Shown piece after piece: positions 14,319 to 17,724 of a DNA stretch of 64,000 nucleotides (within the stretch, counting starts at the first letter, position 1; the number at the start of each line of letters is the position of its first letter). Origin of the DNA: a virus. Lineage: Duplodnaviria; Caudoviricetes. Under the pieces are notes generated by a model, which saw nothing but the letters and a program-made list of their open reading frames with translations, made no database searches and was not told the DNA's origin. Position numbers and translations under genes: made by a program. The DNA lies in the IMG/VR virus record IMGVR_UViG_3300009431_000002, positions 137,922 through 201,921 of that record. One strand, given 5' to 3'.

Positions 14319-15257
14319 CTACGCCCTCCTCTCGGCCGAAGGCGCGAAGAGCGTGGTGCTGGGCGTCGTCGCCCCCGAGGGCGTGGGCGGCGGCCGCAGG
14401 GACTGCTGCCTGCGCTTGTGGTAGCCCAGCAGCTTGTCGATGCCCTTGCCCAGCGTGCCCATCGACCTGGAGCCGACCTCCCAGCCCGCGATGGATCCCC
14501 CGAAGCCGGTGGGCATCCCCGCGACCATGCCGGCGTGACCGCCGAGGTGCTGCAGCGCTCGTTCTGCGTGGCCCCGCGGCTTCCCGCCACCGAAGGCGTG
14601 CGGGTCGTCGCGCTTGACGATGTGAGGGGAGAAGGCTCCGCCGAAGCCCGCCAGCATGGACTTGCCTCCCACCGGCGCGTACTTGGTCAGCTCGCCGGAC
14701 CCAGTCCAGCCGCGGCGCGACAGCTCCTCAGCCAGCTCACGAGGCCGGGTCGCCACGTCACGGAGCCGCTGCGACTCGTCGAAGAGGTGACTCGTCTCGG
14801 CGTGGGGCCGCACGGCCTTGGCTTGCTCCCCCATCGCGCGCCGAGTGCCCGAGCCGCCGGCCCACTCCGGTGCGTACCACCTGTAGGCGCCCTCGGCCTT
14901 CCGGGTCTCCTTCATACCCTCCTGCAGCGCCTTGTGCGCGGCGGGGTCACCCCTGACGGCCTGCATGATGTCCTCGGGCAGGCCCTTGGTCTTGGCGTAG
15001 CTGGCCCAGTCGTCGAACCCGGCCCGGCGGGCCTCGAGCATCAGCCGCTGCGTGGCCCCCTCCACCGGGCTGAGGTGCTCCCAGCCCCGACGAAGGATCT
15101 GTCCCGTGCGGCGCGGGTCGAAGGTCTTGGCGGCGGTGGCGGTGCCGTGCGCCGCGGAGGTGAGCTGGTTGAGGAGGAAGCGAAGCGGGTTGGCCTGCTT
15201 CTCCAGCTCGTCCTCGAACGCATCCAGTCGAGCTGGCGTCAGGGCGCGAGAAGCCAT
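14319..15257 (-). CDS. Putative internal virion protein with FEDELEKQA leader, 312 aa
   Basis: Start revised to ATG at 15257 (SD GGAG); no Cys; Gly/Ala-rich amphipathic segments near the C-terminus. Confidence 0.65.
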   Translation of the reverse strand: MASRALTPARLDAFEDELEKQANPLRFLLNQLTSAAHGTATAAKTFDPRRTGQILRRGWEHLSPVEGATQRLMLEARRAGFDDWASYAKTKGLPEDIMQAVRGDPAAHKALQEGMKETRKAEGAYRWYAPEWAGGSGTRRAMGEQAKAVRPHAETSHLFDESQRLRDVATRPRELAEELSRRGWTGSGELTKYAPVGGKSMLAGFGGAFSPHIVKRDDPHAFGGGKPRGHAERALQHLGGHAGMVAGMPTGFGGSIAGWEVGSRSMGTLGKGIDKLLGYHKRRQQSLRPPPTPSGATTPSTTLFAPSAERRA

Positions 15258-16126
15258 GGCCGCATCATCTCCATCTGTTGGGCCAGCTGGCGCCGGCGCA
15301 GCTTCATGTACTCCCGCGCCCGCAACACTCTGGCCACGCATCGATCCACCTGGGTCTCCCCCAGATCTACTTGGTCCAGGCCCTTACCGGCAACTGATTC
15401 GTACCGCTCCTTGACCGGCCGGTAGTCGTTGATGAAGTAGCGCTCGACCTTCCCGTGCCCCAGCTTCTTCGCCGGCGAGTCCGCCGTGGGCTTGCCATCG
15501 AGGTTGTGCTCACCTCGGAAGCGCTTGGCGCAGACGTCACACGTGTCGTCCTCGAGGTCGTCCTCGTCCTCGTTGCCGCAGCTGGTACACCTGTACATCG
15601 GCCGCGCGGCCAGCCGCTGTGCGAAGTCCAACGGCGGCGGGAGGAACCACACGCCGTCCGACAGCGCGGCCGCGGCGACGAACCGGGCCACCTCGTCCGA
15701 GAACTTCCGGCCGTCCACACTCTCCATCATGTCCACGCCGGCCGCCAGCGCGTCGAAGGAGGGCTGCTGGATGATGTCGAACCTCGGGATGTTGTTGTTC
15801 AGCGCCTGGATGGTGGGGACGAAGGCGTCCCAGCTGATCCAGCAGGCGTCCGTGGCGTGCAGCGTCTTCACCGCCATGATCTTGTTGCGGTTCAGCTCGC
15901 TGATCTCCAGCTGTCCACCGCCGAGCAGAGCCTGCCCGAAGTACCGCTTGATGCCGTCCCACACAGCCTCCGGCACCCACTCCCACCAGTCCTTCCCGAA
16001 GGCGGTGACGATGACGGCGTCGAGGACCAAGGGGTGTGCGTCGTGGTGGCGAAAGAGCGTGGCTGGCCGAATGTCGTCCGGCTGGGTGGTCAAAGCGGTG
16101 GCCGGGGACGCATCAGCCATGCGCAA
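15239..16126 (-). CDS. Hypothetical protein with Zn ribbon (CTSC...CDVC), 295 aa
   Basis: GC3-rich ORF overlapping both neighbours in the portal operon. Confidence 0.65.
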   Translation of the reverse strand: MRMADASPATALTTQPDDIRPATLFRHHDAHPLVLDAVIVTAFGKDWWEWVPEAVWDGIKRYFGQALLGGGQLEISELNRNKIMAVKTLHATDACWISWDAFVPTIQALNNNIPRFDIIQQPSFDALAAGVDMMESVDGRKFSDEVARFVAAAALSDGVWFLPPPLDFAQRLAARPMYRCTSCGNEDEDDLEDDTCDVCAKRFRGEHNLDGKPTADSPAKKLGHGKVERYFINDYRPVKERYESVAGKGLDQVDLGETQVDRCVARVLRAREYMKLRRRQLAQQMEMMRPWLLAP

Positions 16127-17207
16127 TCGTCTGCATGCCGACAGGGCTGTGGCCCGTGTCCGAGGCCAGCCGGGCGAGCGTGACCTTGTTGATGTCGGGC
16201 AGCGACTTGAACACGGAGACGGGGTCCTTGGCGAACTGCGTGGCGAAGTCGTCGCCGAAGTGGTCCTTGAGCAGCTGCCGATTGGCAGACAGGAGCCGCA
16301 GGTCGGCCTCGGTCACGCGCTCGGCGCCCTCCACCCACACGAAGTCCTCGGCGGTCTTCTCGAAGCAGGTGGAGACGGGGTCCAGCACGTGCTGGTCCCA
16401 GAGGTGGTCGAGGCCCGTCTGCTCGTCGAACAGCGTCAGGGCCGTGGCGAGCTTCTCGGGGTTGGCGCGTTCGTCGCCGGCGGACTTCACGAGGACGTCG
16501 AGCACCGGGTGCATGCTGGCCGGCACGTACTGGCGCCGCGCCTCGATGTACATACCGGCGTCGGGAGCGAGCGCGGTGCCGGCGTACTTCTCGATGTCGT
16601 GCGATGGCACGGGGATCCCCAGGTCGGCGGCGCGGGACGCCAGCTTCGTGGCGAACTCGCGGCGGTCGTTGGGATGGAAGCGCAGCATGTTCTCCCGGAA
16701 GAAGCCCATGCCGGCGGCGACCTCCTCGTAGGAGCGCAGCGGGTACTTGCCGAGGGCCACGCAGTCCGCTTCGGCCAGCTTCTCCTGCTCCATCACCGGC
16801 GCAGTGGCCAGCACGGAGTCCACGACCTCGGCCGTCTTCACGCCATCGGCGGTGAGGGCCAGCCCGATCTTCACCAGATCCAGCGGGACCTGCATCTGGT
16901 GGGCCTCGTGGGCGTCGATCAGGTTGTTCACGACCTGCAGCTGGGCCTCCTTGGACAGGTGGCCCCGCTGGGACAGGAAGTAATGGGCGGACATCCATGT
17001 ATTGCCGGGGTCGATGGTGGCATACTTGCAGAACAGGTTGCCGTCGACGGACGCGACGAGCGCGAAGTTCTTGGCCGGCAGAGCCTGACGCTCCTCGGGA
17101 GACAGGAAGGCTGCCGTCTTGGCCATGTCGGGGAGTTGGTCCTGGGGGACGGTACTGGCGAGCAGCGCCGCCTGGTCGTCATAGACGTCGAGGATCAATC
17201 CAGACAT
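16113..17207 (-). CDS. Probable head-assembly protein, K-x-A dense, 364 aa
   Basis: SD AGGAG; first gene of portal operon; 10 of 17 Lys are followed by x-Ala. Confidence 0.65.
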   Translation of the reverse strand: MSGLILDVYDDQAALLASTVPQDQLPDMAKTAAFLSPEERQALPAKNFALVASVDGNLFCKYATIDPGNTWMSAHYFLSQRGHLSKEAQLQVVNNLIDAHEAHQMQVPLDLVKIGLALTADGVKTAEVVDSVLATAPVMEQEKLAEADCVALGKYPLRSYEEVAAGMGFFRENMLRFHPNDRREFATKLASRAADLGIPVPSHDIEKYAGTALAPDAGMYIEARRQYVPASMHPVLDVLVKSAGDERANPEKLATALTLFDEQTGLDHLWDQHVLDPVSTCFEKTAEDFVWVEGAERVTEADLRLLSANRQLLKDHFGDDFATQFAKDPVSVFKSLPDINKVTLARLASDTGHSPVGMQTIAHG

Positions 17208-17239
17208 GGAGACTCCTGTGAATGAGGCGGTCCAGTGGA

Positions 17240-17318: not shown

Positions 17319-17346
17319 AAACCCTGCTCCGAGGAGGATGCCTATC

Positions 17347-17724
17347 GTGACCCGAGCAGCCGCGAGAGCGATTCGTTACTCAGACCTTGCGCCGTCACCG
17401 ACGACGTACCCCCGCAACCGCCCGCCGTGTTTCGGCAAGCAGTACGACCCAGCCGACGCCGAGTGCCGGCACCAGTGCTCCCACAAGAGCGCCTGTGCCC
17501 CGATCTTCCGCCAGACCCACGGGGTCCGCGTCCCCGCAACCACCACCAGCTCCGCCGTGGCGGACCGAGAGCAGACCGAGCTCCCGGAGTACACGGAGGT
17601 CGCTGCCCCCGACGAGAGCTTCTGGGCGAAGCTCGCCTTCAACTCCGCCCTGCAGGCTGTGGAGTCCGTGGTCCACGAGATGCACTACGCCATCCGCTCC
17701 GTCCCGAGGAAGGAGTACTTCTGA
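17347..17724 (+). CDS. Cys4 Zn-finger protein (PPCFGKQY...C..QC.....C)
   Basis: SD GAGGAGG 9 nt before GTG 17347 (alternative ATG 17338); four spaced Cys. Confidence 0.7.
   Translation: MTRAAARAIRYSDLAPSPTTYPRNRPPCFGKQYDPADAECRHQCSHKSACAPIFRQTHGVRVPATTTSSAVADREQTELPEYTEVAAPDESFWAKLAFNSALQAVESVVHEMHYAIRSVPRKEYF

Follow-up and report, generated by a model that had tools for sequence, protein, structure and literature searches.

The head-maturation proteases of tailed phages and of herpesviruses have one fold in common. To our knowledge, few of the signals at which these enzymes cut have been described, and those of the phage enzymes end in Glu; herpesvirus assemblin (MEROPS S21) cuts (V/L/I)-x-A before Ser, and herpesvirus substrates carry two sites. 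In phage T4, the gp21 protease makes many cuts, at (L/I)-x-E, in the prohead core proteins gp22, gp67 and gp68 (PMC9026906), and head proteins of phiKZ and SPN3US are made with N-terminal propeptides that carry multiple sites of the form (S/A/G)-x-E or A-x-E (PMC9026906, PMC10052503). Proteases of the gp21 fold read the residues at P3 and P1, as L/I-x-E in T4 and as S/A-x-E or A-x-E in phiKZ and SPN3US (PMC9026906, PMC10052503). Here we examine a protein of 364 residues, called the target below, encoded by a stretch of 64,000 nucleotides of viral DNA (Duplodnaviria; Caudoviricetes; positions 137,922 to 201,921 of IMG/VR record IMGVR_UViG_3300009431_000002). This stretch, the window, is the final 64 kb of the 201,921-bp genome of an uncultured phage. 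An earlier note, made from its letters, had pointed to the many lysines of the target that are followed at the second position by alanine (K-x-A), and had read it as a scaffold-like protein cut into pieces during head maturation. We find that the K-x-A excess is conserved throughout a large protein family and is absent from the neighbouring genes, and we consider it probable that the phage's own prohead protease, an enzyme of the T4 gp21/assemblin type, cuts the target at multiple sites.

The target has 17 Lys and 48 Ala, and ten of the lysines open a K-x-A triplet (KTA and KLA three times each, KYA twice, KEA and KSA once) against 2.24 expected (4.5-fold; binomial p = 1.3e-5). The recount agrees exactly with the earlier note, which had given the same breakdown and an expectation of about 2. 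Among the 184 open reading frames (ORFs) of the whole genome, the target has the lowest p-value for K-x-A, and the binomial test across the proteome proposed in that note thus singles it out as the strongest case. As the motif had been picked after reading the sequence, we also scored all residue pairs at spacings of 1 to 4 in all ORFs, about 290,000 possible protein-by-pair tests. K-x-A in the target came third, with only a run of Asp (DD) and a Gly repeat ahead of it, and the motif appeared twice more in the top 22, both times in head genes that flank the protease gene described below. When six K-x-A-rich late genes were set aside, the proteome held 204 K-x-A against about 192 expected. Compositional bias was rejected as a cause, since the remaining proteome is near expectation, the syntenic neighbours show no comparable excess and the pseudo-site controls of the flank profile (see below) differ little.

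The target has no match in Pfam (E ≤ 1) or among the PHROGs. A word search gave 26 relatives, and a profile search gave 2826 cluster representatives at E ≤ 1e-3. All 26 relatives found by word search show the excess (295 K-x-A, 73 expected). In 170 members of the family, 2154 K-x-A were counted against 635 expected (3.4-fold), and 135 of these had K-x-A as their most over-represented pair; in the same members R-x-A stood at 1.07, K-A at 0.70 and K-x-x-A at 1.23 times expectation. Every one of the 245 members examined has the excess, with 6–19 sites (median 12) and a ratio that never falls below 1.5. In 80 related IMG/VR loci the ratio was 3.49 for the target family, compared with 0.86 for p295 (the product of the next gene), 1.27 for the portal protein, 0.93 for the RNA polymerase, 1.35 for the helicase and 0.97 for UDG. 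The motif therefore behaves as the earlier note had foreseen for a protease site, being conserved in homologues and not in excess in non-virion proteins of the same genomes. Helical periodicity, which the note had named as a possible cause, provides no explanation: a spacing of i/i+2 is not a helical repeat, and the sites span a strand, helix starts, a mid-helix position, helix ends and loops. At the sites, family genes of 33 to 69% GC use both codons for Lys and all four for Ala, indicating that the constraint acts on the protein; a DNA-level motif was rejected on the same grounds. With at least 2826 clusters and a fixed place of its gene ahead of the portal gene, this large and nameless family probably belongs to the core assembly machinery of the phage lineage. 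Its invariant residues, which include D7, Y9, D10, D11, R182 and R224, suggest a specific role before cleavage.

The K-x-A sites also lie in a common setting that runs from P5 to P2' and can be summarized as [FLM]-[VE]-K-[TVY]-A-[small]. Upstream, P5 is F, L, M or Q and P4 is V, E or R. P2 is T, Y or V, that is, beta-branched or aromatic, and excludes Pro, Gly and Asp; P1' is S, C, H, A, E or G and excludes Pro, Lys, Arg and bulky residues. Judged by its residues, a context with a beta-branched P2, a small P1' and no proline is of the kind that a protease would read, and in this way supports the proposed cleavage. A flank profile was trained on the family sites, leaving out the target and its closest relative. 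The K-x-A of unrelated head-module proteins scored a median of +1.5 with this profile (n = 56), and those in the rest of the genome −2.4 (n = 187; p = 1.8e-10), compared with a difference of just 0.45 for pseudo-site controls. High scores were obtained at residue 25 of the capsid protein and at residues 29 and 556 of the protease, and the extended motif is present near the N-termini of both proteins.

The head module lies 14–22 kb before the window and contains a capsid gene (weak PHROG match), the gene for the large terminase and a 563-residue ORF with a faint match to a PHROG of head-maturation proteases. An AlphaFold2 (AF2) model of residues 1–270 of the ORF product (predicted template modelling score 0.78) was compared with 48,161 chains by VIA-align. 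The top match was T4 gp21 (5JBL; Z 8.9, root-mean-square deviation 2.9 Å over 130 of 165 residues), followed by the protease of varicella-zoster virus (VZV; Z 7.7) and then by those of human cytomegalovirus and Kaposi's sarcoma-associated herpesvirus. Foldseek returned the same families, with herpesvirus proteases heading the list, at weak E-values. According to the model, the phage encodes a predicted head-module protease of the T4 gp21/herpesvirus assemblin fold. Several homologues of this putative protease carry inteins (Hom_end, LAGLIDADG_3, Hint), which are usual in essential enzymes, and a fusion to an inorganic pyrophosphatase domain (PF18823) is seen in others. Genes for the protease and for a member of the target family occur together on contigs of 170–196 kb (for example L013, L016, L047, L057 and L072).

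As a positive control, the same binomial statistic was applied to 25 T4 proteins with the known T4 motif, [LI]-x-E. The scaffold gp22 stood out (16 sites, 5.8 expected; p = 4e-5), and was followed by gp21 (2.7-fold), gp68 (2.5-fold), and gp23 and Inh (2.0-fold each). Other tail, replication and packaging proteins lay between 0.4- and 1.6-fold, and the neck protein gp13 at 2.1-fold (5 against 2.4, not significant). By analogy with this system, in which the answer is known, the signature of the target would be that of a multiply cut protein. The target resembles the T4 core proteins in three ways: as in gp22, a P3-x-P1 motif is in several-fold excess along the chain; T4 has a protease of the same fold (modelled in the target phage); and the genes for gp67 and gp68 also lie beside the portal gene. 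In contrast to the T4 core proteins, to which it has no sequence or fold similarity, the target uses Lys-x-Ala and not Leu/Ile-x-Glu, has a predicted compact fold and a C-terminal domain free of the motif, and is encoded before the portal gene and not after it. The propeptides of phiKZ and SPN3US offer a likeness of another kind, a long N-terminal part with many redundant sites joined to a C-terminal part that is kept, in jumbo phages that package an RNA polymerase, as the target phage, itself a jumbo phage, probably does; the motif differs, however, there is no homology, and the part kept in the target would amount to 78 of 364 residues. With the sites of herpesvirus assemblin, an enzyme of related fold as judged by the VZV match, the proposed sites share Ala at P1 and a small residue at P1', but P3 is Lys and not aliphatic, and there are ten sites and not two. 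K-x-A followed by a small residue would thus fit the P3/P1 scheme of proteases of the gp21/assemblin fold.

The ten sites are unevenly placed along the target (Table 1). All precede the C-terminal domain, and in the corresponding region family-wide (residues 290–355) the 797 lysines form 44 K-x-A where 66.9 would be expected (0.66-fold; depletion p = 1.3e-3). We propose that K284-T-A286, the last site, is the maturation cut that frees this domain; Ala286 is invariant across an alignment of 14 sequences. Around K241, where the exact register varies, 81% of the family domains have a K-x-A within 6 residues. In the AF2 model of the target (predicted local distance difference test, pLDDT, 83), the chain forms compact domains with short helices and two beta-hairpins, and residues 127–144 fall below a pLDDT of 50. 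The model had no match in the PDB (Foldseek best E 0.12; highest VIA-align Z 5.3, for a helical piece of 63 residues); BFVD gave only unnamed relatives and the ESM Atlas only hypothetical viral clusters.

Part of the target arose by internal duplication, residues 60–116 corresponding to residues 153–210 (16593–17030, minus strand; hhalign 95%, E 2.6e-8), although BLASTP between the two halves found no repeat. Both units resemble Pfam DUF6582 (PF20223; small phage proteins), so that the target holds two copies of this unit. One homologue, P0025, scores 30.2 bits over the hairpin region, above the Pfam gathering threshold of 27.3, and the target itself has no match at E ≤ 1; as DUF6582 is without known function, the match explains nothing. 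The K-x-A positions of the two copies are not equivalent, except for the pair 113/207, and position 113 reads KIG in the target. Internal repeats were therefore rejected as the cause of the excess: there is only one duplication, and it accounts for a single pair of sites. The first copy reads R-K-F-A where the second copy and distant members read K-x-P.

From these results we infer that the target would be synthesized late, along with the portal protein, and become part of the prohead. Every [FLM]-[VE]-K-x-A-[small] stretch would then be bound by the protease in extended, strand-like form, its Lys occupying S3 and its Ala S1, and the chain would be cut after each such Ala. Cuts at the listed sites would divide residues 1–286 into pieces of 32, 31, 25, 38, 19, 45, 19, 34, 11 and 32 residues, which may leave the head or stay in it as small internal peptides, and the motif-free domain of 78 residues would be released intact. 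The fixed linkage of the gene to those of p295 and the portal protein suggests a role at the portal vertex. Because K-x-A is confined to residues 1–286 and is depleted in the C-terminal domain, the target has the look of a precursor whose N-terminal part would be cut many times and whose small C-terminal product would be spared, and not of a classical scaffold. Unlike T4 gp22, P22 gp8 and phi29 gp7, it is not predicted to be an elongated helical or coiled-coil protein, and its gene stands first in the portal operon, some 32 kb away from the head module with the protease and capsid genes, an arrangement seen in 80 of 80 loci. Searches of Pfam, PHROG, PDB and BFVD matched it to no named scaffold, though a missing match does not exclude a scaffold family. 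Of the reading put forward in the earlier note, then, the protease site is supported by the gp21/assemblin-fold protease, by the flanking context, both shared and protease-like, and by the T4 control. The scaffold-like character is the weaker part, given the compact helical domains predicted in place of a coiled coil, the position beside the portal and not the capsid gene, and the depletion over the last 78 residues.

Several observations weigh against cleavage of the target. The excess is mostly found at conserved alignment positions (4.3-fold in match states, 1.38-fold in variable inserts), so that the raw counts are inflated by shared ancestry, and independent recurrence in the inserts is weak and lends little support. 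Several sites are in a strand or in the middle of a helix of a confidently folded model, which means that the protease could reach them only after unfolding. A K-x-A occupies residues 2–4 in the 22% of members that start M-K-T-A(-G), and a cut there would remove only four residues, to no obvious benefit; the target itself starts M-S-G. The putative protease was not placed by phmmer, by a sequence-profile search of the PDB or by Pfam, and its assignment is one of fold, as modelled, and of position only. A tblastn search of 50,697 phage records with the target and a central family member gave no match, and hence no cultured carrier. Finally, sequence alone cannot separate true processing from the role of a pseudo-substrate or regulator.

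That last alternative, which we regard as unlikely, holds that the K-x-A sites bind the prohead protease without productive cutting, the target serving as a pseudo-substrate, timer or inhibitor that restrains the protease or recruits it to the portal vertex, in the manner of T4 Inh. Inh (inh, locus L083, 21328–22008), the annotated inhibitor of gp21, is itself about twofold enriched in the T4 motif (9 L/I-x-E, 4.6 expected) and, to judge from its sequence, may act as a pseudo-substrate; moreover, many of the target sites are in folded elements, and the gene is tightly linked to that of the portal and not to the protease or capsid genes. However, the density and spread of the target sites are closer to those of gp22, the T4 scaffold that is degraded, than to those of Inh, and a sharp boundary between a part rich in sites and a C-terminal domain with none is the mark of a processed precursor. 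We find it quite unlikely, too, that K-x-A is an inherited structural feature, conserved for folding or packing and with no common reader. The concentration of the excess at conserved positions, the well-folded model and the equivalent pair 113/207 in the two repeats would all agree with such a feature. Yet the sites fall in a strand, at the start, middle and end of helices and in loops, and the paralogous repeats otherwise carry them at different positions. Their registers shift by 3–4 residues between lineages without ever coexisting (188/191, 238/242), their six-residue context recurs at the K-x-A of unrelated head proteins and not elsewhere in the genome, and the conserved C-terminal domain avoids the motif. 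The varied settings, the mutually exclusive registers, the non-equivalent sites of the repeats, the shared context and the spared domain together point to a common reader and not to a requirement of the fold.

If there is a reader, it might be an enzyme other than a protease, such as a lysine modifier or a cross-linking activity. The failure of Arg to replace Lys (R-x-A, 1.07-fold) would suit chemistry at the epsilon-amino group; nevertheless, the late genes that were scanned showed no candidate for such an enzyme, and the capsid protein and the protease both have the motif close to the N-terminus, where cleavage of a propeptide is to be expected, making this explanation very unlikely. A fluctuation of chance or composition, spotted after the fact, must also be considered for a motif chosen by eye from so many possible tests. 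We give this practically no weight, as the motif ranked third among all those tests, was repeated in 245 of 245 homologues over the whole range of GC content and is absent from the neighbouring genes.

Within the library searched, we found no paper that connects K-x-A with a prohead protease. What is new here is the test across the whole family with its syntenic controls, the comparison of flanks by profile, the argument from internal duplication, the calibration on T4 and the motif-free C-terminal domain. A broader proposal is, in our judgement, evenly balanced: that the prohead proteases of gp21/assemblin type include a new specificity class, which reads K-x-A with a small residue after it, and that the target is the founding member of a very large family, as yet without a name, of precursors encoded in portal operons. 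In these precursors an N-terminal part of 286 residues would be shredded at about a dozen sites and a C-terminal head protein of 78 residues released. If processing at K-x-A is confirmed, Lys-x-Ala would add a distinct specificity to the head-maturation proteases, and sequence alone would suffice to predict which head proteins are cut in thousands of large phages that have not been cultured. The target, with some ten sites in 286 residues beside a conserved domain that avoids the motif, would be the cleanest test substrate.

Table 1. Features of the target gene, its product and related genes. Positions refer to the window unless marked as genome positions; family occupancy of the sites was taken from 177 aligned family domains.
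Feature	Position	Strand	Remarks
Target gene, 364 aa	16113–17207	-	ATG start; ORF call and translation
Shine-Dalgarno sequence AGGAG	17213–17217	-	ATG 6 nt downstream; read directly from sequence
p295 gene, 295 aa	15239–16120	-	next gene; zinc-ribbon-like Cys pairs; ATG overlaps target stop
340-aa ORF	14319–15341	-	between p295 and portal genes
Portal gene, 665 aa	12321–14318	-	similarity to Arash gp204
Candidate protease ORF, 563 aa	genome 120729–122420	-	between capsid and terminase genes
K-x-A-dense part, residues 1–286	16350–17207	-	all 10 sites; family-wide 2.2–6.0-fold per segment
Conserved C-terminal domain, residues 287–364	16116–16349	-	beta-hairpin and five short helices (model); 4 Lys, no K-x-A
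K30-T-A32	17112–17120	-	helix end; K-x-A within 4 residues in 87% of domains
K61-Y-A63	17019–17027	-	beta-strand, first DUF6582-like repeat; family occupancy 94%
K86-E-A88	16944–16952	-	helix start; family at 86 only (12 domains), 90 only (119), both (1)
K124-T-A126	16830–16838	-	loop, start of low-confidence linker; family occupancy 45%
K143-L-A145	16773–16781	-	loop, low-confidence linker; family occupancy 74%
K188-L-A190	16638–16646	-	mid-helix; family at 188 (70 domains) or 191 (62), both 0; ungapped alignment
K207-Y-A209	16581–16589	-	helix end; sole site structurally equivalent to one in other repeat (113)
K241-S-A243	16479–16487	-	helix end; family at 238 (38 domains) or 242 (95), both 0
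K252-L-A254	16446–16454	-	helix start; private to target
K284-T-A286	16350–16358	-	last site, loop; family occupancy 78%

The target gene has a coding-type base composition, with a GC content at third codon positions of 0.92. A divergent intergenic region of 130 nt lies upstream, and the stop codon overlaps the start of p295 in ATGGCTGA. The order target, p295, portal is conserved in 80 of 80 related loci, all with UDG and helicase genes on one strand and the target, p295, portal and RNA polymerase genes on the other. The earlier note was therefore right to place the target first in the portal operon. The portal assignment itself comes from similarity of the 665-residue protein to gp204 of Salmonella phage Arash (30% identity over 444 residues, E 3e-86), which is annotated as a portal protein and was found in virions (PMC10585845). 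The p295 gene is translationally coupled to the target gene and follows it in all 80 loci, and its product, which matches nothing in Pfam or PHROG and in which K-x-A is not in excess, would seem to be an obligate partner of the target protein. The slot ahead of the portal gene is variable, a homologue of the 340-residue ORF being detectable in only 6 of the 80 loci. This ORF has the F-x-D-E-L-x-K-x-A leader of the lineage; its true start is probably an internal Met at about 15260, and counted from there the leader, A-F-E-D-E-L-E-K-Q-A, sits 13 residues from the N-terminus. A small divergent ORF of 128 residues (17338–17724, plus strand) has two K-x-A among four Lys, and its seven detectable homologues have 10 against 2.8 expected, a sample too small to judge.

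The phage encodes a single-chain beta-beta' RNA polymerase, and its nearest cultured relatives, all distant, are Vibrio phages D69, D148 and D181 and Salmonella phage Arash. No member of the target family was found when the Arash genome was searched with a profile. Between the helicase and portal genes, Arash (gp199; locus L001, 9358–10290) and D181 (D181_0253; locus L084, 6199–7119) encode an unrelated protein of about 308 residues. These two proteins were rejected as equivalents of the target (hhalign probability 0.1; no K-x-A excess), and being unrelated to it they leave the Arash virion proteome uninformative on the target protein. Arash gp199, which was detected in virions, and D181_0253 share the N-terminus Y-T-x-L-D-P-Y-Y. 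The slot between the helicase and the portal gene is thus kept in the cultured relatives, and its occupant has been replaced.

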